Shown here: piece after piece, positions 7,960-43,860 of the stretch
How positions within the stretch are numbered: position 1 is the first letter of the stretch
How the letters are laid out: the number at the start of each line of letters is the position of its first letter
From: Methanobacterium sp.
GTDB taxonomy: Archaea; Methanobacteriota; Methanobacteria; Methanobacteriales; Methanobacteriaceae
Assembly: GCF_038562635.1 (NCBI RefSeq)
Contig: NZ_JBCFBO010000001.1
Location: forward strand, 1,736,192-1,800,191
Direction of reading: 5' to 3'
Length of the DNA stretch: 64,000 nucleotides
Notes under the pieces: model-generated
Databases searched by the model: none
The model's input: only the letters and a program-made list of their open reading frames with translations
Told to the model about the DNA's origin: nothing
Position numbers and translations under genes: made by a program

Positions 7960-10329
7960 ATGGAAAATGATGTAAAAAGCGAATATCAGCGAATCAGTGA
8001 CAAAATCTCATATGACGATTTCCTAAAAAGAATAGAGGACATGAAAAAGGATTATGAAGATGTAAGTTTTATGGATGAGCTTGATATTGCAAGGATGATA
8101 GTAGGAGAATATATAGACGAAGAAAACGTTCCACTTGCAAAGGACAACGAACTACGTAAAATATCCGAATTAGAGACAGGTTTGCATGATATAAGCATAA
8201 CTGGTCGGATAATGAGAATCTCCAACGCTAAAGCATTTGTAACAAAGAAAGGAAAAGAAGGTAAAGTACAAAACATTATGTTATCAGATGATACTGGGGA
8301 AATTAGAGTAGTACTCTGGACTGATAACATCAAACAACTTAAAAACTTTTCTGAAGGAGACATTGTCAAAATAAACAATGTAGAAATAAAAGATGGATAC
8401 AGAAGTGAAGAGGCCCACTTACAAGGCAGATCAACCATCGAAAAAGTTGAGGGCGAAGAAGCAGATAATTTACCAGAATATGCTGAAAAAATAACAAAAA
8501 TTGCAGACATTAAAGGCGAAATGCAGGTTAATGTAATTGCAAGAGTAGTTAGAATTTCAAGAATAAGAACCTACAACAGCAACGGCAGAGAAGGACAATT
8601 CATTACCCTGGATTTAAAGGATGATACAGGTTCAATATCCTTAACTTTATGGAATAAAGATGTTGAGATTATTAATGAAATAGAACTCAAAGAAGGAGAT
8701 TCTATAAAAATATTAGGTGCCCAAAGCCGTGTTAGAAATGATGAAGTTAATTTAACTCATTCCTGGATTGGAAGGATAATAAAAGATAATTTCGATGTTC
8801 CCGAGTATAAAGAAGAAGTTATGAAGATCGGAGACGCCCATGAAATGAAAGATGTCACTTTAATGGGAGTTGTGAGCAAAATACAGGATGCTATCACTTT
8901 TCAACGTTCAGATGGAAGTGCTGGATCTGTAAAATCAATTGTAATTTCAGATGAGACAGGTTCCATAAAAATAACTCTCTGGAATGATGATACCAAGCTC
9001 GACATCAACAAAGGAGATATCCTGAAAATCACAGGTGGAAATATTGAATTTGATGATTATTCAGAAACTGGTTACAGGGTGAACACTGGATGGAGCAGTA
9101 AAATAGTCATAAATCCAGAAGAAGACGCTGGTTTAAAAGAAGTTCTTGAGGAACACAAAAAAGAGCTTGAACCAATCAAAATTGAAGATTTACATAAACT
9201 TGAAGATGAAGGAGAAGAAGTGGATATCATTGGAAGAATGATGGATCTTTACGATGCCAATGAATTCCAAAGAGCAGATGGAACTACAGGACTTGTAAGG
9301 TCTGTTAAAATCGCTGATGACACTGGAACAGTTCGAGCATCACTATGGGATGACAAAGCAAAGCTCAGGTTAAATAGAGGCGATCTTGTAAAGATAGAAA
9401 ATGCAAAAACCAGGTTTAGAGACGACAGTGTGGAGCTTAGCATTGGAAAAACAGTTAGAATAATTAAAATAAGTGAGAATGATGCCCAGAGCCTTCCACC
9501 TATTGATGAGCTTGAAGGGGAAATGTATAAACCAATTAAAATTAGCGCTTTAGAGAACATAAAAAGTGAAAGAGACGAAGTTGGAATAATTGGACGTATA
9601 ATTAATTTATATGATGTCAATGAGTTCCAAAGGTCCAATGGAACCATGGGAATGGTCAGAACAGTAGAACTTGCTGATGATACTGGTTCTGTTAGAGCTT
9701 CATTTTGGGATGAAAAAGCTGAAATGGGGTTAAACAGAGGCGATGTAATTTGGATTAAAAATGCAAGACCAAGATTCAGAAATGATACTGTTGAACTCAG
9801 TGTTGGAAGAGCCACAATGGTAATCAAACCAAAAGATGAAGATATAGCTGCACTTCCTTCACTTGAAGAAATTGAAGAATCAATATATAAAACCAAGAAA
9901 ATTGAAGAACTTACAGAAGATGATAAAAACATCAAGTTAAGTGGACAAATTATTGAGGCATATGGAGATAGGATACTCTATGAAATGTGTCCAAATTGTA
10001 ATAAAAGAGTAGAATACGTCGATGATGCATTTGTATGTGATTTCTGCGGAGAGGAAATACAACAACCAAACTATCTCATGATAGTTCCATGTGTAATTGA
10101 AGATGACACTGGAACGGTCAGAACAACATTCTTCAGGAAACAAGCTGAAGAATTAATTGGAATGACCACTGAGAAGGCAAATGAAGTGATTATGACGACT
10201 GCAGATGAAGGATCACTTGCAGGAAAAGTCGAAGACCTGATTGGCAGCGAGATTACTGTAATCGCAGATGCAAGCTTCGATGAATACAATGAGGAAATAA
10301 GGCTCATTGCAAAGAAGATAGTAAAATAG
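7960..10329 (+). CDS. rpa: Replication protein A (ssDNA-binding), six OB folds plus a C-terminal zinc ribbon
   Basis: 789 aa. Six repeats carry a DDTG-x-(I/V)-x3-(L/F)W motif: LSDDTGEIRVVLW, LKDDTGSISLTLW, ISDETGSIKITLW, IADDTGTVRASLW, LADDTGSVRASFW, IEDDTGTVRTTFF. A Cys4 motif CPNCNKRV...CDFCGEE follows. Confidence 0.85.
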   Translation: MENDVKSEYQRISDKISYDDFLKRIEDMKKDYEDVSFMDELDIARMIVGEYIDEENVPLAKDNELRKISELETGLHDISITGRIMRISNAKAFVTKKGKEGKVQNIMLSDDTGEIRVVLWTDNIKQLKNFSEGDIVKINNVEIKDGYRSEEAHLQGRSTIEKVEGEEADNLPEYAEKITKIADIKGEMQVNVIARVVRISRIRTYNSNGREGQFITLDLKDDTGSISLTLWNKDVEIINEIELKEGDSIKILGAQSRVRNDEVNLTHSWIGRIIKDNFDVPEYKEEVMKIGDAHEMKDVTLMGVVSKIQDAITFQRSDGSAGSVKSIVISDETGSIKITLWNDDTKLDINKGDILKITGGNIEFDDYSETGYRVNTGWSSKIVINPEEDAGLKEVLEEHKKELEPIKIEDLHKLEDEGEEVDIIGRMMDLYDANEFQRADGTTGLVRSVKIADDTGTVRASLWDDKAKLRLNRGDLVKIENAKTRFRDDSVELSIGKTVRIIKISENDAQSLPPIDELEGEMYKPIKISALENIKSERDEVGIIGRIINLYDVNEFQRSNGTMGMVRTVELADDTGSVRASFWDEKAEMGLNRGDVIWIKNARPRFRNDTVELSVGRATMVIKPKDEDIAALPSLEEIEESIYKTKKIEELTEDDKNIKLSGQIIEAYGDRILYEMCPNCNKRVEYVDDAFVCDFCGEEIQQPNYLMIVPCVIEDDTGTVRTTFFRKQAEELIGMTTEKANEVIMTTADEGSLAGKVEDLIGSEITVIADASFDEYNEEIRLIAKKIVK

Positions 10330-21107: not shown

Positions 21108-21898
21108 ATGGACTACAATGAACTTGGAAATAAATTAAAGGAAATCTTGAAATTAAAAAATGATCCAGTTGCCATAAAATGGTCTGTAAAAGAACCAAGA
21201 GATATTGAAAAGGAAGAAGGTAAATCTAGATTTTCTACCAAACTTACGAAAATCGTAGATTTTCGTGCCAACGAAACCATCGGTTTCGTGGCCCCAAACC
21301 TTTGCATTTGAGGGCTCCAAAAATTCTATGAATTTTTGAGAGCTAGACAAAGCTATGCACGGCGAAACTTTCTATGCAACTGCTGAAGAAGAGGAATGTA
21401 TGGGTGGTGCAAGATATTCGGGACTTAAAGACCCAAAGGAATTCCCTGCAAACATGCAAAGTGGTGCATTTTTAGTTCCAATGGGAGTTTACAAGAATAT
21501 ACCTGCAGTTCAACGTTCGTGGAAAAATAATTTGAATGTAGAATGCGGGATTTTTAACGCCGTTATCTTTGCCCCCCCCCCCTTGTAAATGCAGAATTTG
21601 AACTGACGTGATATTTGTAGTCTGCAATGCAAAACAGGGGATGGAAATACTCCATGCAAATGCGTATGATTCGGGTGCACATGGCTTAGGTGCTGATTCA
21701 GGACCAATATGCAGCTCAATGGCCGCAGTTCCTTATATGACTGGAAAGGTCACCTACGGTTTTGGAGATGTGGGTTCCAGACAGCATATGGATATTAACC
21801 CAGAAGATATTATGGTTGCTATTCCTGCAAGTGAATTTTCCCGTATAATATCCAACTTAGAAGAAATGAGAACCAAAAAATTCTTTAAGGAAAGGTGA
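21108..21898 (+). pseudogene. DUF169 family gene, disrupted by a 100-nt hairpin-array insertion and two frameshifts
   Basis: Three consecutive ORF fragments (21108-21311, 21355-21588, 21608-21898) together read as one DUF169-like protein: ...KSRFST / ELDKAMHGETFYATAEEEECMGGARYSGL...VIFAP / LVNAEFE / DVIFVVCNAKQGMEILHANAYDSG... Confidence 0.8.
21240..21339. mobile_element. 100-nt A/T-tract mini-hairpin array inserted in the DUF169 coding sequence (MITE-like behaviour)
   Basis: CGAAAATC-gta-GATTTTCG (21247-21265), ACGAAACC-atc-GGTTTCGT (21271-21289) and CAAAAATTC-tat-GAATTTTTG (21318-21338). Deleting 21240-21339 restores the reading frame between fragments 1 and 2. Boundaries are good to within a few nt. 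Confidence 0.6.
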
Positions 21899-22220
21899 TA
21901 TTAATTTATTCGCTCATGTCCAAGTCTGTGTACATTTATAATTCATGCTATAACTGGTTAATTTAAATTAAAAATTTCAAGATGTCAACCCATTTGTTTT
22001 GTGAACATTCAAAACATGAGCGAATTTATTTTACATTCTTAATTTATCCAGACACTTTTAATTTTGCAGAATTCAGTTTTTTAAGAAAAATCATAGAACT
22101 ATTTCAATAAAAATCAGAATTTTCAGTGATTAAGTAGTCATTTTTGAAAGTATTTATACTCATTTATTTTATACATAGTTATGTAAAGCTACTTAATTTA
22201 CATTTACTCGGAGGCAATCA

Positions 22221-26921: not shown

Positions 26922-28154
26922 ATGAAAAAAAATATTTTCATTGAAAAGCTCATTCAAAAACCAATTGAACAGCAAGAAATAGAGATAGTAGAAAGAAAAG
27001 GTATAGGACACCCCGATAGTATCAGTGACGGAATAGCAGAATCCGTAAGCAGAGCTTTATGCAATGCATATATCGAGCAGTTCGGAGAAATAATGCACCA
27101 TAACACTGATGAAGTTCAAATTACAGCAGGAGAATCAGACCCAGTATTTGGCGGCGGAGATATAATCAAACCTATGGACATTCTCCTTACAGGAAGAGGA
27201 ATAGCCGAATTCCATAATGAAAAAAATGGAAAATTAGAAATAAAGAAAATGGGCCTTGACAGAATAGCCATAGCTGCTGCAAAAGAATACTTACGAGAAA
27301 ATATCATAAACCTCGATGTCGAAACTGCCACAGTCGTAGAATGTAAAATAGGACACGGATCAGGCGATTTAACAGACGTATTTAAAAGAAAAGGAGAAGC
27401 ACCTTCATCTAACGATACATCATTTGGTGTAGGTTACGCGCCATTTTCAGAAACAGAGAATATAGTACTCGCTACAGAAAATATGCTAAACTCCCGAGAC
27501 TTTAAAAAGAAATATCCTCAAGTAGGTGAAGATATTAAGGTTATGGGACTTAGAGACGATAACCATATCGTGCTTACAGTTGCTTCAGCCATGGTTTCAA
27601 AATATGTTAATGATCTTGACCATTATATCGATGTAAAAGCAAAAGTACACGATGAAGTACAGAAACTTGCCGAAAAGTACACAGAAAGAAATGTAGAAGT
27701 TTATATAAACACTGCAGACATTCATGACCCAGAAAATCCTTCAGTTTATCTGACTGTTACTGGAACTTCCGCAGAAATGGGTGACGACGGTTCTGTAGGA
27801 CGTGGAAACCGTGCAAACGGGTTAATAACACCAAACAGACCTATGTCCATGGAAGCAACTTCCGGAAAGAACCCAATAAACCACGTTGGTAAAATATACA
27901 ACCTTTTATCAAATAAAATTGCAAATGATATAACTGAAGAAGTTGAAGGGGTAAAACAGGTACATATAATGCTTTTAAGCCAGATAGGAAAACCAATTAA
28001 CCTTCCAAAGGCTGCAAGTGTCCAAATGATTCTGGAAAATGGATACCAGCTTGAAAATGTTAACAAGCAGGTAGAAGAAGTCACAGATTACTGGTTAGAA
28101 AATATAACAAGCATAACTGACATGCTTGTAGCTGGTAAAATCAGGACTTTCTAA
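26922..28154 (+). CDS. mat: Archaeal-type S-adenosylmethionine synthetase
   Basis: 410 aa with [19 protein letters not shown] and [17 protein letters not shown]. Confidence 0.9.
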
Positions 28155-28510: not shown

Positions 28511-31303
28511 TTGAAAAGGCAACTATTAATTTTAATTATTTTTTCTATATTAGCCTTGATAACGTGTGAAACAGCTTCAGCATCACCCGATTTAGCGGTA
28601 ACTTCTGTAAATGTGACAAGTAATGTTTCACCAGGCAGTACAGTAACAATAAATGATACTGTGACTAATCAAGGTGATCAAGCAGCAGATGGATTCACTG
28701 TAGGCTATTACATACAGGATGAATATGCTGTAGTTAAAAAACCTGCTAGTCAGCGTAATGCATCTATTTATGGAGATAAAGTAGTCTGGTCTGATTACAG
28801 ATATGATCGGCAGGAAAGTGATCTTTACTATAAAAATATTACAGGTACAGAAGACGGAGTTATTTATACTCCAGGTGATCAACTTAATCCTGCAATTTAT
28901 GGAGATGTAATTGTATGGCAGGAAAATTTGTCCTGGTTAGGTAATTCTCATTGGCAAATTCTGGGTTATAATATTCCAGGTAGAGATGATCCAATTAATG
29001 ATAGTATATACCTATTATACAACACAACTTCTGATCAGATCAATCCATCAATATATCAGGATAAAATAGTCTGGCAGCAGCAGAGATCAGACGGAAGCTG
29101 GGACATATATTTATATGACTTCCCAATCACAGACGATATCGCGATGCCCAAAGAGAAATGGATTACGCGAATAACTAAAGACGGTGCTAATCACATTAAT
29201 CCGTATGTTAATGGAAATTACATTGTATGGCAGCAAGATAATGGAGACGGCATCTGGAATATATACACATATGATCTTTCTACAGGAGATATAAATCGAG
29301 TATGTCAATCTTCAGAAAACCAGACTAATCCTGCGCTTTATGGAGATAACGTTGTCTGGCAGCAGTATAACACAACCAGTAAAAACTGGGACATATACAT
29401 GTATGATCTTTCCGCAGATGAAGAAACCCAAATAACCCATAATACATCCAACCATATTAATCCTGCAATTTACGGGGATAAGATAGTGTGGCAGGACAAC
29501 AGGAACGGGAACTGGGACATATACATGTACGATTTAACTCTTGGAATTGAAAGGCAGTTAACTATAGACAAAGGGAACCAGATAAACCCTGCAATATATG
29601 ATAATAAAGTTGTTTGGACTGATGATAGAAACAGTAATGAAGACATCTACATGACAGATGACCTCACATTAGCACCAGAATATACTCGTTACGTTTCAGG
29701 TCTAGCAGCAGGAAAATCAGATAGTGCACTGACAAATATAACTTTACCATCGGATTTAAAAGCAAACGTCAATTATTACATACTAGTTATGGCAGATGCA
29801 GCGTACGATAACAGCGTTTCTGAATCTAACGAAAATAATAATATAAAATTCAGCGGTGCAATGATTGTACCTGATGCCGACCTCACAATGCCTTCAGTAT
29901 CTGGGCCTGCTACAGCTCAAACAGGCGGATCAATGGTAGTAGTAAATACTGTGAAAAATATAGGGACCAAAAACTCAAATCCATTCCATGTCTATTTCTA
30001 TCTCTCAAAAGACGGCACTACATTAAATACCAAGATTGGATCTAGATTTGTTTCAGGAGGTCTCAAAGCAGGTGCATCAAACACTGCATACACAAATCTT
30101 ACAATTCCATCCAATATCTTTGGAAGCTATTATATTGTAGCAGTAGTTGATCCTCTAAATAAAACATGTGAAACAAATAAATTAAACAATATTGTGGCTT
30201 CTTCAACCACTACAAATATATGTGCTCCAGATCTTGTTATTACATCAATAAGCACAGGAACAACCACATACAAAAGAGGAGACAAAATAACCATCCAAAA
30301 CACAGTAAAAAACCAGGGAAGCTCCACATCAAAAGGTTTCTATGTTAACTTCTATCTCTCAAATGACAGCACTATTACCACATCTGACACCTACCTAGGA
30401 CAAAGATACATATCAGGAGGTCTCAACGCGGGCATATCAAATACAGAATACACAAACTTTACAATCCCATATGATGCGTCTGGAAATTACTATATCGGGG
30501 CGATAGTTGACTCAACTAACACCGTATTTGAATCAGACGAATCAAACAATATAAAAGCATTCTCAACTACCATAGAGGTATGTTCACCTGATCTTGTTAT
30601 TACATCAATAAGCACCGGGACAACCACATACAAAAGAGGAGACAAAATAACCATCCAAAACACAGTGAAAAACCAGGGGAAAATTGCATCAGGAGGATTT
30701 TATGTCAATTTCTATCTCTCAAATGACAGCAACATTACCACATCTGACACCTACCTAGGACAAAGATATATATCAGGTCTCAATGCAGGTGCATCAAATA
30801 CAACAACCACAAGCTTTACAGTCCCATCCAGCCTATCTGGAAACTATTATATTGGGGCGATAGTTGACTCAACCAACGCAGTTTTTGAATCAGACGAATC
30901 AAACAATATAGCGACCTATTCAAACACTATAAATGTAGTCCTTCCTGATCTTGTAGCTTCATCAGTAAGTGCAGGATCAACTTCGTACAGAAGAGGCAGC
31001 AAAATGACTATTAAAAACACAGTGAAAAACCAGGGAAAAGTTTCATCCGGAGGATTTTATGTCAAAATTTACATCTACCGAAGCTATAAAGGCAAAATAA
31101 CTTCCATATACCTTGGTAGACGATACATTAGCTCACTTAAAGCAGGGGCATCAAATACAGCGTACACTAAATTAACTATACCTTCAACTATAGCAAAAGG
31201 ACTTTACTACTGCAAGATGGTAGTCGATACAGAAAACAAGGTATCAGAGTCCAGCAAATCAAACAATGTGATTAGCAGCGGAACATGGGTGAATATATTT
31301 TAA
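28511..31303 (+). CDS. Secreted surface protein: CARDB domain, beta-propeller repeats, then five CARDB-like repeats
   Basis: 930 aa with the signal peptide MKRQLLILIIFSILALITCETASA. About 8 blades carry NPAIYGDK(I/V)VWQ...WDIY(M/L)YDL. PDL(V/A)(I/V)TS...TV(K/T)NQG units are characteristic of CARDB. TTG start. Confidence 0.75.
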   Translation: MKRQLLILIIFSILALITCETASASPDLAVTSVNVTSNVSPGSTVTINDTVTNQGDQAADGFTVGYYIQDEYAVVKKPASQRNASIYGDKVVWSDYRYDRQESDLYYKNITGTEDGVIYTPGDQLNPAIYGDVIVWQENLSWLGNSHWQILGYNIPGRDDPINDSIYLLYNTTSDQINPSIYQDKIVWQQQRSDGSWDIYLYDFPITDDIAMPKEKWITRITKDGANHINPYVNGNYIVWQQDNGDGIWNIYTYDLSTGDINRVCQSSENQTNPALYGDNVVWQQYNTTSKNWDIYMYDLSADEETQITHNTSNHINPAIYGDKIVWQDNRNGNWDIYMYDLTLGIERQLTIDKGNQINPAIYDNKVVWTDDRNSNEDIYMTDDLTLAPEYTRYVSGLAAGKSDSALTNITLPSDLKANVNYYILVMADAAYDNSVSESNENNNIKFSGAMIVPDADLTMPSVSGPATAQTGGSMVVVNTVKNIGTKNSNPFHVYFYLSKDGTTLNTKIGSRFVSGGLKAGASNTAYTNLTIPSNIFGSYYIVAVVDPLNKTCETNKLNNIVASSTTTNICAPDLVITSISTGTTTYKRGDKITIQNTVKNQGSSTSKGFYVNFYLSNDSTITTSDTYLGQRYISGGLNAGISNTEYTNFTIPYDASGNYYIGAIVDSTNTVFESDESNNIKAFSTTIEVCSPDLVITSISTGTTTYKRGDKITIQNTVKNQGKIASGGFYVNFYLSNDSNITTSDTYLGQRYISGLNAGASNTTTTSFTVPSSLSGNYYIGAIVDSTNAVFESDESNNIATYSNTINVVLPDLVASSVSAGSTSYRRGSKMTIKNTVKNQGKVSSGGFYVKIYIYRSYKGKITSIYLGRRYISSLKAGASNTAYTKLTIPSTIAKGLYYCKMVVDTENKVSESSKSNNVISSGTWVNIF
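30228..30947 (+). repeat. Tandem 360-bp coding repeat (two CARDB units) with near-identical cores
   Basis: 30230-30318 versus 30590-30678 shows about 3 mismatches in 89 nt, and 30349-30415 versus 30709-30775 is similarly close. The offset is exactly 360 nt. Confidence 0.85.
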
Positions 31304-31983: not shown

Positions 31984-34900
31984 ATGAAAATGCCAATAAA
32001 AGAGGCCAAGAGATCATACGATACAAAGCTTATAGAAAAAGATATTCAAAAGTTTTGGAATGAAAACAGTATATATCAAAAAACAGACAAATTAAGAGAG
32101 AATAGTCCTAAATTTTCATTTTTAGACGGCCCTCCTTATTGTAGTGGTAAAATACACCTGGGAACTGCATGGAATAAAACCATAAAAGACACTTTTTTGC
32201 GCTTTAAAAGCATGTCAGGTTTCAACCTGCGGAGACAAGCTGGATGGGATACTCATGGACTTCCTATAGAACACAAAGTAGAAGGGTTACTCGGTTTAAA
32301 AAGTAAAAAGGAAATTGAAACTAAAATAGGAATTGCCAATTTTGTAGAAAAATGTAAAGAATTTGCAATCGAAAATAAAGCCCTCATGACCGATCAGTTT
32401 AAAATGCTGGGTATATGGATGGACTGGAATAATCCTTATGTTACTTTTGATACTAAATACATGGAATCCTGCTGGTGGACCCTAAAGAAAGCAAACGAAA
32501 AAGAACTTCTTATAAACGATCTCAGAGTTATAACATGGTGCCCCCGATGTGAAACAGCACTTGCACTTGCAGAAATCGATTATGAAAATAAAGAAGACCC
32601 TTCAATTTATGTTAAATTCCCATTAAAAGAGTCTGAAAACGGTAATGAATACATACTTGTATGGACAACAACACCATGGACCCTTCCTGCTAACATGGCA
32701 GTATGTGTACATCCTGATTTTGATTATGCTTATGTTAATGTTAACGGCGAAGTTTATATAATGGCAGAAGCCCTTGTTAGCTCTTTATTCGAAGATCAAG
32801 ATTATGAAATTCTTAAAACAGTGAAAGGTAGTGATCTTGAGGGCCTTGAATATCAACACCCACTTATAGATGAAATACCTGTTCAAAAAGAATTTACGCA
32901 TAAAATACTTCCAGGAGAACATGTAACTTTAACAGAAGGTACTGGTTGTGTTCATACCGCTCCAGGACATGGTCCAGACGACTTTGATATTGGTAAAAAA
33001 TACGGTTTACCAATATTCTGTCCAGTAGATGAGGCAGGACTATTTAAAAAAGAAGCTGGAAAATATGAAGGCGAATTCGTAAAAGAAGCCGATCCTTACA
33101 TCATAACTGATTTAGATGTACACGGTTTACTCTTTAAAGAAGGCATAATTGACCACAGGTACGGGTTCTGCTGGAGATGTAAAACTCCTATTATATACCT
33201 TGCAACACAGCAGTGGTTCCTTAAAGTTACAGACATTAAAGACAAAATGTTATCCGAGTTAGACCATGTTGAATGGGTTCCAGAATGGGCTGGTGAAAGC
33301 AGGTTCCGTAACTGGGTTGAAAATGCAAGAGACTGGACAATATCAAGGCAGAGATACTGGGGAATTCCAATTCCAATCTGGAGATGTGAAGACTGTGGAG
33401 AAATAACCGTTATAGGATCCATCGACGAGTTAAAAGAGAAAACAGTTAAAGGAACTCTCGAAGGAGATTTCATACACAGACCGTATGTTGATGAAATTAC
33501 AATCCAGTGTGAATGTGGGGGAGACATGAACCGTGTCCCTGACGTTTTAGACGTGTGGATAGACTCAGGAGTAGCAGGATGGGCAGCTCTGCACTATCCC
33601 GAAGAAAAAGAAATGTTTGATGAATGGTTCCCTTACGATTTCATAACAGAAGGACATGATCAAACTAGAGGATGGTTCTATTCACAATTAGGGTGCGGAG
33701 TAATATCTTTTGACAAAGCACCATATAAAAAAGTTTTAATGCACGGATTTACCCTCGATGAAGAGGGAAGAAAGATGAGTAAATCCCTCGGAAACGTAGT
33801 AGCGCCAGAAGAAGTCATTGAACAGTACGGAGCAGATATACTAAGATTTTATCTACTCTGGGGAAATAAACCATGGGAAGACCTGAAATTCACATGGGAT
33901 GAGATTAAAAACGTCCAGAAAATGTTCAATATTCTCTGGAATGTTTATGTATTTTCAACTACCTACATGGCAATAGACAATTTCAACCCAACACTGTACA
34001 CTGAAAAAGATCTTAAATTAAGAGATGAGGACAGATGGATAACTTCACGTGCTAATTCTCTTGCAAAAGAAGTAACAGAAGCTTTAGATTCATTATATCT
34101 CCATAAAGCTACAAGGGCTATAAATCATTTCATACTGGAAGATTTGAGCAGATGGTATGTTAGACTCATAAGAGGACGTACATGGGTTGAAAAAGAAGAT
34201 CCTGATAAATTAGGAGCTTACTTTACACTATATAACGCCTTAAAACTTCTAATTAAAACAATGGCCCCAATAACTCCCCACATTACCGAAGAGATTTACC
34301 AGAATCTCATAAAAGGAGTGGAAGAAGATGCTCCTGAAAGTATACATATGGAAGACTGGGAATTCAATGAAGACTTGATTGATACAGAATTAGAAGAAAA
34401 TATGGATATCGTCAGAGATATCATCGAAGCATGTGCAAGAGGAAGAGATGTTGCAAGATACAAACTTAGATGGCCCGTAAGCGAAATTGTAGTTGTTTCT
34501 GAGGACAAAAAAGTTTTAAGCGCAGTTGAATCACTTAAAGCTGTCATAATGGAACAGGCCAATACAAAAGAGATCATAGCAACAGATGAATTTGAAAACC
34601 TCAAGATAATTGCAAAACCTAATTTAAAGACCCTTGGACCAAGACTCAGAGGCGATGCACCAAAAGTAATGAAACATCTTACAGAAGCCGACGGATCAGA
34701 GATAAAAGCAGTCTTAGATGCTGAAGAAAGTTATTCTGTTGAAGTTGATGACAGAACCATAGAACTTGGTGTTGACGATATTTTATTTGAAACTGAACTT
34801 CCAGAAAATCTTGTAAGTGCAGATTTCGATTCTGGAAATGTATTCATAAACACAGAAGTCACTGAAGAAATATTATCCGAAGCAATGTCCAGAGAACTTA

Positions 34901-35130
34901 TAAGAAGAGTTCAAGACATGCGAAAAGACCTTGACTTAGATGTTGAAGCCAATATTCAGGTATTTGTAGAGTGTGATGAAGGTTTCAAAGAATTAATTAA
35001 ACCATTCTTTGACTTTATTTCCAATGAGGTACGTGCTGAACAGCTGAGTTTTGAGGCACAGGAAGGAGATTATACAAAAGAGTGGAAGATTGAGGATGAA
35101 AACCTTAAAATAACTATCAAAAAAACATAA
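31984..35130 (+). CDS. ileS: Isoleucine--tRNA ligase
   Basis: 1048 aa with the HIGH-type motif [16 protein letters not shown] and the motif [15 protein letters not shown] lies upstream. Confidence 0.95.
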
Positions 35131-35159
35131 TAAAATATTAAAGTGTTTTTGATCAACCG

Positions 35160-35264
35160 CTCAAAAATTCGTAGAATTTTTGGCCCCCCGAAAATCCCTC
35201 AAAATTCGTAGAATTTTGGGGCATCGAAAATTTTTAATTTTCGAAAGCTATGATTTTCGAGGGC
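35160..35264. repeat. A/T-tract mini-hairpin array (about 4 hairpins)
   Basis: CAAAAATTC-gta-GAATTTTTG (35162-35182), CCCTCAAAATTC-gta-GAATTTTGGGG (35196-35221) and CGAAAATT-ttt-AATTTTCG (35225-35243). Confidence 0.9.
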
Positions 35265-35286
35265 TTTTTCCTAAAAATGTTGAAAG

Positions 35287-35338
35287 GTGGAAGATTGAGG
35301 ATGAAAACCTCAAAATAACAATTAAAAAAACACAATGA
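35287..35338 (+). repeat. Duplicate of the last 49 nt of ileS, retained as an in-frame tail
   Basis: 35082-35130 versus 35287-35335 differs at 4 of 49 positions. Three differences are synonymous third-position changes and the fourth turns the stop TAA into CAA. Copy B reads [18 protein letters not shown] possible third partial copy lies at 35345-35369. Confidence 0.8.
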
Positions 35339-35405
35339 GGTAACAAACCTCAAATAACTCTTAAAAATATACACTAATTAAATATATTAACTACAGCGTG
35401 ATATC

Positions 35406-37583
35406 ATGACCCTAACAGATTCAGAATGTAAATTTGTAAAAAAAGAACTGGGACGAGACCCCAATTCATTGGAGTATGGTATGCTTGACATAATGTTTTC
35501 AGAGCACTGCTCCTATAAAAGCAGCCGTCCTATTTTAAGATTATTCCCAAACGAAGGTAAACATGTTATCCTTGGTCCCGGAGACGATGCGGGAATTGTT
35601 GAATTGACAGATGAACTCGCACTTGTTATTGGAATGGAAAGCCACAACCATCCATCCGCAATTGAACCTTATGGTGGTGCTGGAACAGGTATTGGCGGTA
35701 TACTTAGAGATATCATTTCTATGGGTGCCAAACCGATTGCATTACTTGATTCATTAAGATTTGGACCTCTTGAAGACCAAAAATCAAGGTACATATTTGA
35801 ATATGTGGTAAAAGGAATTTCAGATTATGGAAATAGAGTAGGAGTCCCAACTGTCGGTGGAGAAATTGAATTTGATGATAATTTCAAATTTAACCCGCTT
35901 GTAAATGTTATCTGTGCAGGGCTTGTTAATAAAAGCGATATTGTATTAGGTTCTGCACCTAATGTAGGTGATATCTTTGTCCTTATGGGAGGTACCACAG
36001 GAAGAGACGGAATACATGGAGTAACATTTGCATCTGAAGAGCTTACAACTGAATCTGAACTCGAAAGCAGACCTGCAGTTCAAGTAGGAGATCCTTTCAC
36101 TAAAAAAATGGTTATGGAAGCTACATTTGAAGCACTTGATAAAATTGACGTGGTTGGACTCAAAGATTTAGGCGGCGGAGGCCTGACATGCTGTGTTTCA
36201 GAAATGGCTGCTAAAGGCGGAAATGGGGCTGAAGTAGAACTTACAACAATTCCACTTAGGGAAGAAGGAATGACACCATATGAAATAATGCTTTCGGAGT
36301 CCCAGGAAAGAATGATTTTTGTTGTAAACCCTAAAGATGTGGACGCGTTAATGGAAATATTCAATAAATACGAACTTCCAGCAGCAGTTATTGGCAAAGT
36401 TACAGATACTGGTAGCTTAGTTTTGAAAAAAGAAGGCGAAGTTATAGCAAATGTTCAAACAGAACTTCTTTCAGATCCTCCAGTTGTTAACAGGGAATCA
36501 TGTAATCCAAAAGAAAAAGGATGCGGACCATCTGAATCTGCGGAATATCAAGAAGTAGAAGATATCGATCCTCAGGAATCTCTTCTCAAACTTCTCTCCT
36601 CACAGAACATCGCAAGTAAAAGCTGGGTTTACAGGCAGTACGATCACGAAGTACAGATTAGAACTGTTATTAAACCCGGCGATGATGCAGCAGTTCTTAG
36701 AATTGATGATGAAAAGGCCATTGCACTTACCTCAGACTGTAACAGTATACACACAAAGCTCGATCCATACCATGGAGGGGCTGGAGCAATTGCAGAAGCC
36801 ATAAGAAATGTTGTTTCAATGGGTGCTGAACCAGTATGCGTTGTTGATTGCCTGAACTTTGGAAACCCTGAAAAACCAGATGTTTTCTGGCAGTTTAAAG
36901 AATGCATCAAAGGAATGTCAGACATTGCAAACAAATTTGAAACTCCAGTAATAAGCGGTAACGTTAGTTTTTACAACGAAACTGAAGGAGTAACTGTAAA
37001 TCCTTCCCCAGTTGTGGGTGTTGCAGGTCTAATGAATATAAAAGACATTAGAACTATGGATTTCAAAAATGAAGAAGATAAAATCATATTAATCGGTAAA
37101 ACTTATCCTGAGCTTGACGGTTCCCAATACCATAAAGAAATTTTTGACATTGTCCAGGGAAAATCTCCAAAGGTGAATATGGATGCTGAATTTGAATCTT
37201 CAGAGGCAGTTCTAAAAATAATTCATGAAGATGAAAATGATGCGGTAACAGCGGTTCATGATTGTTCAGCTGGAGGAATAGCCGTTGCAGTTGCTGAAAT
37301 GGCAATTTCAGGTGATCTTGGAGCAACTATAGATGTTTCAAAGGTGCCTAAAGAAGATAATATAAGTGATGCTGAAACATTATTTTCAGAGTCCAACGCA
37401 AGATTCATTGTTACAGTTAAAAGTGAATATGTGGATGAAATATTAAACAAAATAAATGCTCCTGCAGCAGTTATCGGAGAAGTTGGAGGTAAAACTTTAA
37501 CTATTGACCAGAATCTGATAAATGTAGATATTGAAAAGCTCAAAGAATCATATTATGGAGTAATAGAAAAATTCATGGCTTAA
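35406..37583 (+). CDS. purL: Phosphoribosylformylglycinamidine synthase subunit PurL
   Basis: 725 aa with [35 protein letters not shown] and ISMGAKP. Confidence 0.95.
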
Positions 37584-43339: not shown

Positions 43340-43860
43340 CCTTAAAAACTGTTAAAATCCCTTAAAATCTGTGATTTTGGGGATCCTCAAACGCGAAGCA
43401 TTCAAAAATCTCTGATTTTTGATGCGTCAAAATTCTTATAATTTTGACAGCGTTTGGGACATGTGAAAACCTTTGGTTTTCACGGTTGCGGAACATTAAA
43501 AAATCTCCGATTTTTTATGCAACGAAAAATGCAAAGCATGCAAACACTTCGTGTTTGCTGTTACAAAATCGTAGATTTTGTAAACATTTTTCTCCTGCTT
43601 TGTTCTGCAAACATCGGAAATCTTGATTTCCAAATGTTCGAAAAATCTTTTTGATTTTCTCAACCTCAAAAAATTTTTTATTTTTTTGGGCCGTCGAACA
43701 CATGGTGTTCGGGCCCTACAAATCTTTGATTTGTGGCCAAGGAAACATAGTTTCCTACGGCTTAGAAATCAGAGCAGTCGAAAATTCATAGAATTTTCGT
43801 CGCGTCAAAATTTTCAATTTTGACAGATTTCGAAAGGTTCAAAAAATTCATAGAATTTTC
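43340..43860. repeat. Largest A/T-tract mini-hairpin array (about 18-20 hairpins, about 520 bp)
   Basis: TCAAAAATC-tct-GATTTTTGA (43402-43422), GTCAAAATT-cttat-AATTTTGAC (43426-43448), GTGAAAAC-ctttg-GTTTTCAC (43463-43483), GCAAACAC-ttc-GTGTTTGC (43540-43558), TACAAAATC-gta-GATTTTGTA (43562-43582), GGAAAC-ata-GTTTCC (43741-43755), CGAAAATTC-ata-GAATTTTCG (43779-43799) and GTCAAAAT-tttca-ATTTTGAC (43804-43824). Confidence 0.9.

Follow-up and report, generated by a model that had tools for sequence, protein, structure and literature searches.

The duplicated ileS gene end of a Methanobacterium genome probably arose at a dispersed palindrome and predates the hairpin array nested within it

The 64,000-nt stretch of a Methanobacterium genome analysed here (the window) carries the isoleucine--tRNA ligase gene ileS (NCBIfam TIGR00392, 1118 bits) followed on the same strand by purL (TIGR01736, 997 bits). 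Between the two lies a second copy of the ileS 3' end, separated from the first by a palindrome whose loop holds an array of hairpins (Table 1). The final 49 nt of ileS (copy A, 35082-35130) are found again at 35287-35335 (copy B), at an offset of 205 nt and with 45/49 identical positions; weaker similarity reaches 61 nt (35082-35142 against 35287-35347, 85%). The four differences comprise three synonymous codon changes (CTT/CTC, ACT/ACA and ATC/ATT) and the conversion of the stop TAA to CAA, which is followed by TGA. Alignment bore out this repeat and its differences as they had been described in an earlier sequence-only reading of the locus, which went on to propose that the array had brought the duplication with it. 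When the tails of 51 window open reading frames (ORFs) were compared with the 700 nt downstream of each, ileS scored 37, the next best tail 13 and control segments at most 12, a scan that rules out a chance origin. The same reading held that copy B still reads in frame. Copy B is indeed open internally, within a 52-codon ORF (35180..35338), but since 205 = 3 x 68 + 1 it stands in the +1 frame relative to ileS and is unreachable by read-through of the copy A stop. A family search with this ORF gave no match, and a small protein encoded there is unsupported. The third, partial copy that had been noted further downstream (copy C) is real and corresponds to an older tandem duplication of ~39-40 nt that took in ~29 nt at the end of the gene together with the stop and a further 7 nt.

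To place these copies in their evolutionary setting, we compared the junction with that of relatives collected by a one-genome-per-species scan with the IleS protein, which gave 78 loci (L numbers), ~40 of them from Methanobacteriaceae with ileS followed by purL. The nearest, L001, belongs to Methanobacterium sp. MBAC-LM and shares 99% IleS protein identity with the window; strain variants came from public runs (X1-X5, X6, X7, X9, X10 and X39) read against the window. Three states of the junction were found. A single tail with a 27-33-nt spacer to purL occurs in L003, L011, L005, L008, L009, L013 and L039, and a match at L008 proved to be a HEAT-like protein repeat only. A single tail accompanied by a decayed copy of ~40 nt, equivalent to copy C, with 67 nt between ileS and purL, is present in L002 and L040. 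Two or three tails are carried by the window, L001, L004, L007, L010 and L006. Genomes with one tail and no array, which the sequence-only reading had predicted for some relatives, were thus found in L002, L040, L011, L003 and others. From copy B through purL the window aligns base for base with single-tail L002 and L040 (alignment A1), and copy B is therefore the ancestral end, still in its original position. The sequence after copy A, TAAT..TTAAA, is the post-stop sequence of L003 and L040. Copy B is accordingly the former ileS 3' end, displaced and no longer translated yet still directly upstream of purL, as the earlier suggestion of a displaced gene end had it, and the novelty consists of copy A plus the spacer.

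Displacement of this gene end has happened more than once. Copy C is present in L002, L040, L001 and L004 and absent in L003 and L011, and in L001 there is a third tail besides A and B, namely B', which is truncated, contains an indel and lies beside the old downstream sequence. Within one clade the number of tails thus runs from three (L001) through two (window and L004) to one (L002 and L040). Copy C and the three tails of L001 show a serial displacement of the ileS end. In the tree, L002 and L040 with their single tails fall within a group of genomes that carry the duplication, a position that argues for its easy loss.

The hairpin array is a separate matter. In L001, L004, L007 and L010 both tails are present without any array, joined by a ~40-90-nt spacer with a perfect T/A palindrome at its end; in L006 the two-tail layout is degenerate and the spacer longer. 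The X9 strain likewise has two tails and lacks the array (joint 35158->35274 with TTTTTT between, giving GATCAACC-TTTTTT-AAAATGTTGAAAG). In the window, the array contains a hairpin at 35162-35182 and an outer stem (35185-35196/35252-35263) that encloses two more, at 35194-35224 and 35224-35244. In a DNA fold the split palindrome arms pair around the whole array through a CAACC/GTTG stem (-32.1 kcal/mol, z = -6.4). Its content varies among strains: a 37-nt unit (35164-35200) is present in the window strain and X1-X5 and missing in the near-identical X6, X7 and X10 strains, and the X39 strain has 180 other letters at the array position. The array is a later, recent insertion nested in the palindrome loop and is still gaining or losing units. 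Because array-less alleles carry both tails and the array sits within the palindrome, the order of events is tail duplication with the palindrome first and the nested array later, with the array not the cause of the duplication.

The proposal that insertion of the array itself made a long target-site duplication does have one parallel among the relatives. In L003 (3088-3319), the end of a methionine adenosyltransferase gene is perfectly repeated over 18 nt (aaaataaggacattctaa, with the stop codon), and between the two copies lies a ~197-nt insert that consists of one T-first hairpin and four A-first ones. This arrangement is absent in relatives: the ortholog has one tail and no array in the window (26922..28154), L001, L004, L011, L013 and others. 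At ileS, however, the array lies inside the palindrome rather than beside the repeats, and it changes by 37-nt units while the repeats stay untouched. Of the 11 arrays of the window, the ten others lack flanking repeats, so that a rule by which arrays carry such repeats fails in the window, with L003 as the single exception. The array-less two-tail alleles (L001, L004, L007, L010 and X9, with the degenerate L006) refute an array-made target duplication at ileS, and we regard this origin as highly improbable. The sequence-only reading had named the case of all relatives carrying the copies without an intervening array as evidence against its own proposal; array-less copies do exist, but not all relatives carry copies.

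We therefore turn to the palindrome, which at ileS takes the form TTTTGATCAACC-T4-7-(0-2 nt)-A4-6-GGTTGAARG, or in short TTTTTGATCAACC-Tn-An-GGTTGAAAG, and directly adjoins copy B. The right junction is constant, with the palindrome meeting a TGG codon (GAARG and then TGG in L001, L004 and L007 as well), and the left side varies from 9 to 52 nt. The account that we favour, and hold to be rather probable, is a local duplication of the tail at the palindrome, with copy B displaced and the nested array added later. In this account a stretch of ~50-60 nt at the end of ileS, spanning 16 codons, the stop codon and a few further bases, would have been duplicated locally, giving two copies whose junction carries a dispersed palindrome, TTTTTGATCAACC-T5-7-N0-2-A5-6-GGTTGAAAG. 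The event could have been an illegitimate, microhomology-guided recombination, a template switch, or a one-sided homologous recombination at the palindrome. The left side of the joining would have been homologous, within ileS, and on the right side the 3' arm of the palindrome, GGTTGAAAG, would have been joined to the similar ileS sequence AAAAGAnTGGAAG. The 3' half of the palindrome, AAAAGGTTGAAAG, matches ileS AAAAGAATGGAAG at 10/13 positions, a short match in AT-rich DNA, and at another locus a copy of the palindrome is followed by GGTGGAA, again a short likeness in AT-rich DNA. A microhomology-guided joining step is therefore no more than plausible.

Once formed, the structure might behave as a small tandem repeat that expands (as in L001), collapses (as in L002 and L040) and exchanges sequence with working alleles. 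The tight spacing of the genes offers a possible reason for its survival. Into gaps of 27-33 nt, or of 2 nt in the second case described below (L093), a terminator could be inserted harmlessly only together with a duplicated gene end: the first copy would keep the reading frame and stop, and the last copy would keep any purL signals overlapping the old tail. This suggests that only tail-duplicating insertions survive.

The differences between the copies bear on this turnover. Synonymous to non-synonymous codon differences between A and B number 3:1 in the window, 4:0 in L001, 7:0 in L004, 2:3 in L007 and 1:1 in L010, and 3:0 for the tail pair of L093, an ATP-grasp gene. In the window clade plus L093, 17/18 are synonymous against a fraction of ~0.33 expected if A were constrained and B drifting (P about 1e-7, a value to be read with the shared ancestry of these events in mind, which makes them not fully independent). 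The B copies of different genomes vary at the same synonymous sites as working tails. Copy B of X39 equals copy A of L001 at 51/51 positions, whereas the copy A of X39 itself departs from it at 4 sites. Among close relatives the final ~500 nt of ileS form a mosaic. Neutral decay looks different: copy C and the B' of L001 have indels and changes at any codon position, and the locus does not look like a single old duplication that then decayed neutrally. The B copies would thus be former working alleles or have been refreshed by recombination. Because B is coding-like, X39 and L001 share an identical tail, the ileS end is a mosaic and single-tail genomes are nested, the comparison indicates turnover by recombination, whether as A/B collapse and re-expansion, gene conversion or allelic replacement; exchange with working alleles would account for copy B differing almost only at synonymous sites.

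Several points weigh against this account. The microhomology at the junction covers only about 6-10 of 13 nt, lies in AT-rich DNA and might be coincidence. The same palindrome and junction occur in lineages with only 76-81% ileS DNA identity, which would call for one of three histories: an old origin with many losses and gene conversion, a lateral spread through recombination, or targeted events that happened repeatedly. If the repeats and palindrome ease deletion, long persistence would need selection. Finally, the terminator function assumed for the palindrome is drawn from general knowledge of archaeal oligo-T termination.

The palindrome had looked specific to ileS among the 78 loci, a view overturned by a scan of metagenome contigs and by further loci of organism A. 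An exact-pattern scan of metagenome contigs found it in 106 stretches. In 56 of 89 distinct matches complementary C/G occupies the unspecified positions; the search pattern did not include the 5' flank TTTT(G/T), yet this too is conserved. The family form is TTTT(G/T)GATCAACC-T4-8-(0-4 nt)-A4-8-GGTTGAA, represented in the window by 35148-35158 with 35265-35286. Organism A has it at two or more further loci. The contigs (L079-L196, metagenomic and viral) span 25-55% G+C and include Methanobacterium-like and Altiarchaeota contigs, other archaeal-type ones with LonB, SMC or SecD/SecF of archaeal type, and some contigs binned as giant viruses; in the Methanobacterium-like L092, L103 and L145 the palindrome follows A-first hairpins and has no flanking repeats. 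Its typical site is just after stop codons, beside tRNA genes, or before ribosome-binding sites. Tandem arrays of palindrome hairpin plus spacer were seen in L184, L088, L089 and L083.

Oligo-T runs terminate transcription in archaea. The palindrome has T5-T7 on its plus strand and T5-T6 on its minus strand, and because its position fits and oligo-T occurs on both strands, it should act as a bidirectional archaeal intrinsic terminator. RNA runs were available as assembled contigs only, which break inside the hairpin array; contig depth (152 vs 71, ~two-fold lower past the array) was too crude to serve as transcript evidence, and a bacterial-type promoter and terminator scan is uninformative for an archaeon.

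A second, independent gene end joined to this palindrome is found on the 1.56-Mb contig L093, where the homologues of the encoded proteins carry the label Candidatus Altiarchaeota. There, a circularly permuted ATP-grasp gene ends in QTVFVD*, followed by 18 nt and the palindrome, past which lies a second copy of the last seven codons with three synonymous changes. This copy B and the stop codon of a convergent MgtC gene are 2 nt apart, exactly the spacing found in L198, a relative with one tail and no palindrome. The logic is the same as at ileS, with the old tail kept next to the downstream gene and a new tail plus palindrome added upstream.

The occurrence of a ~30-nt palindrome at the duplicated tails of two unrelated genes (ileS and ATP-grasp) in two archaeal phyla raises the alternative that the palindrome is itself a non-autonomous mobile mini-element, which would insert through staggered cuts 20-60 nt apart and, in gene ends, survive only where the duplicate includes the stop. 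Its dispersal within genomes, its conservation across contigs of 25-55% G+C and its direct contact with copy B in every case are in keeping with mobility. Against this, tail duplicates were found at one of ~68 adjacencies of palindrome and ORF end (L093), L092, L103 and L145 have no flanking repeats, the repeat length varies from 21 to 62 nt with the left repeat 9-52 nt off the palindrome, and no transposase or integrase was found nearby. We consider such an element unlikely, and since most copies lack repeats, a regular long duplication by the palindrome is unsupported. The bolder form of this idea, to which we likewise give little credence, is that the ~30-nt palindrome TTTTTGATCAACC-Tn-An-GGTTGAA, common to Methanobacteriota, Altiarchaeota and other archaea, is a mobile, portable terminator that inserts between packed genes while duplicating 20-60 nt with the stop, and then becomes a landing pad that seeds hairpin arrays.

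Alternatively, copy B could be kept by selection for promoter or leader signals of purL, so that ileS termination is uncoupled from purL initiation. The ancestral 27-33-nt spacer holds a Shine-Dalgarno-like GCGTGATA, and because this spacer is so short the ileS tail must contain whatever promoter purL may have. Each duplication leaves a tail copy next to purL (B and C in the window, and likewise in L007, L010 and L006), and in L093 copy B preserves the ancestral 3' flank of the convergent gene. The tail, however, has no recognisable BRE (B recognition element) or TATA box conserved across species (the L010 and L013 tails differ), and variation in copy B tracks codon positions rather than a promoter footprint. 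Selection of this kind is a possibility that we hold with considerable doubt; it complements the local tail duplication favoured above and does not exclude it.

The layout also recalls integrative elements that target gene 3' ends, such as tRNA genes, or the aEF-2 gene in the case of casposons, where the proximal copy is intact and the distal one is the displaced host end. Were the repeats attL/attR-like remains of an element that targeted the ileS 3' end and carried its own gene-end copy, the polarity would fit, since it is the newer copy that completes the gene while that of the host has been moved distally; the differences, too, are of an allelic, synonymous kind. The 45-205 nt between the repeats, however, hold no integrase, casposase or cargo and no ORF with a family match, only the 30-nt palindrome, which may or may not be joined by hairpins. 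In all lineages the gap is taken up by this one short palindrome, which is also found alone at many loci, and repeat length is variable. With no recombinase or cargo between the repeats, an att-site relic is unsupported and, in our view, scarcely credible. The neighbouring genes encode, besides ileS and purL, the methionine adenosyltransferase, a beta-propeller protein and an ABC-2 permease.

Transposons and miniature inverted-repeat transposable elements (MITEs), of which the window holds a true example, share with the ileS locus direct repeats around an insert with inverted-repeat symmetry. They differ in that the repeats here are long and variable, at 49-62 nt (window, L001, L004 and L007), ~36 nt (L010) and 21-23 nt (L093), do not adjoin the left end of the insert, and are missing from most palindromes; a fixed-length (2-15 bp) abutting target duplication was found neither at ileS nor at L093. 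Diversity-generating retroelements, with their template and variable repeats, likewise have a gene 3'-end repeat downstream with a hairpin nearby. Here, in contrast, the differences (T/C, T/A, C/T and T/C) are not adenine-specific, the repeat is only 49 nt, and no reverse transcriptase was found among the tested neighbours on both sides of ileS-purL, where three small downstream ORFs gave no family match; such a retroelement is unsupported.

Two further known phenomena have features in common with the locus. Tandem duplication by template switching or illegitimate recombination at palindromes and quasipalindromes is a known process, which includes homology-facilitated illegitimate recombination in bacteria. 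It shares with the ileS locus a head-to-tail repeat with a hairpin-forming sequence at the join, perhaps a short similarity there, and later expansion, collapse and gene conversion; here, in contrast, the junction sequence is a member of a dispersed, conserved family, the event has either recurred or persisted at a single gene end in several species, and the displaced copy is coding-like. Bacterial repetitive extragenic palindromes (REPs) and the mosaic elements built from them (BIMEs) are likewise short, dispersed intergenic palindromes, mostly after stops, arrayed, strain-variable and plausibly acting on termination or mRNA ends, and both the array and the palindrome are dispersed, arrayed short palindromes of this kind. 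The differences are that our host is an archaeon, that the stems follow an A4-T4 pattern and that units are nested in each other's loops. No RAYT-type transposase was identified in the 64 kb of genome available, the window ORFs having been partly screened, and REP insertion is not known to duplicate tens of target bases. The feature is a variant on palindrome-associated duplication combined with REP-like repeats. A literature search found no paper on such repeats in Methanobacterium, nor on the palindrome sequence.

The array units have a character of their own. The array motif has 21 matches in the window against 1.6 expected, perfect A-first hairpins number 60 in the 64 kb, and units are common to different loci and genomes at 86-98%. 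The stems share an xAAAA..-loop-..TTTTx pattern rather than one sequence. A known RNA family is unsupported: the only Rfam match was to a plant miRNA model, which scored 23 bits (E = 0.64) where the gathering score is 94. Nested arrays occur at 43386-43458 and 35185-35263, where an outer stem, CTCAAACGC...GCGTTTGGG or CCCCCGAAAATC...GATTTTCGAGGG, surrounds two complete inner hairpins, as if new units had inserted into the loops of older ones. At 21108-21898 a DUF169 gene is split into three ORFs and an A-first array (21246-21338) lies inside it, replacing profile positions ~32-47; the X9 strain skips 21230-21348, and an indel polymorphism is found at 21572. The gene appears to be a pseudogene broken by the array.

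Table 1. Features of the ileS-purL junction in the window
Feature	Position	Strand	Basis
ileS coding sequence, working gene	31984..35130	+	ORF list, NCBIfam match, 99% identical protein in MBAC-LM
Copy A, newer copy: working ileS 3' end, last 16 codons including stop	35082..35130	+	
Post-stop spacer taaaatattaaagtgttttt leading to the palindrome	35131..35150	+	Compared with L001/L004 spacers
Palindrome 5' arm GATCAACC	35151..35158	+	Intact palindrome in array-less relatives, X9 allele
Nested A-first hairpin array, 106 nt	35159..35264	+	Fold; absent in L001, L004, X9
37-nt hairpin unit, strain-variable	35164..35200	+	Joint 35163->35201 in X6, X7, X10
Palindrome T-run, loop, A-run and 3' arm TTTTTCCTAAAAATGTTGAAAG; directly adjoins copy B	35265..35286	+	
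Copy B, displaced ancestral ileS 3' end (relic), ends CAA TGA	35287..35338	+	
Small hairpin TGAGGTAACAAACCTCA at the old stop position	35336..35352	+	
Copy C, older decayed tail copy with indel	35345..35377	+	73% over 33 nt
Conserved purL upstream region, TTAAATATATTAAC ... GCGTGATATC, Shine-Dalgarno-like	35378..35405	+	Conserved block, alignment A1
purL coding sequence	35406..37583	+	

Further observations concern the ileS end and its surroundings. Within the spacer, GTGTTTTTGAT (35143-35153) is inverted relative to ATCAAAAAAAC of the tail (35116-35126). At the old stop, TGAGGT is common to the window, L002, copy B of L004 and L001, and L040 has TAATGT. The hairpin TGAGGTAACAAACCTCA is likewise common to L002, L004 and L001, and L040 has TAATGTTAAAACCTC in its place; the 6-bp stem therefore arose via ~three substitutions. 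In the more distant Methanobacteriaceae L026 (7100-7160) and L006 (7110-7153), the palindrome is fused in frame into the ileS end, giving a different C-terminus, ITINLLEKG*, in L026 and a decayed version of it in L006; deletion between two ATCAA motifs of a tail-spacer-palindrome structure would explain the fusion. On the minus strand of L004 (reverse complement ~9560-9850, about plus-strand 1295-1585), the 3' end of a small ORF recurs ~200 nt downstream as a degenerate copy of ~95 nt, with no hairpins between; tail duplication therefore occurs without palindromes as well in these genomes. A MITE-like insert of 120 nt occupies 21903-22022 of the window; it carries an 8-nt direct repeat, AATTTATT, together with inverted repeats at its termini, CGCTCATGT.../...ACATGAGCG, and is absent from the near-identical strains in X6, X7, X9 and X10. 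In this genome a beta-propeller repeat protein gene (28511..31303) stands between ileS and the methionine adenosyltransferase gene, and it contains a tandem repeat of 357 nt at 30180-31065 (2.5 copies, 80% matches). Variants called from fragmented strain contigs added little.

Collectively, two events that looked like one have now been separated, a distinction relevant to how Methanobacterium hairpin arrays arise. For annotation, neither copy B nor the ORF around it should be called a gene. Old gene ends left in place form a readable fossil record of serial displacement, which makes the locus a compact natural system in which to study how polyploid methanogens gain terminators and undergo gene conversion and illegitimate recombination. 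Should the palindrome prove to be mobile, it would represent a new kind of archaeal element.

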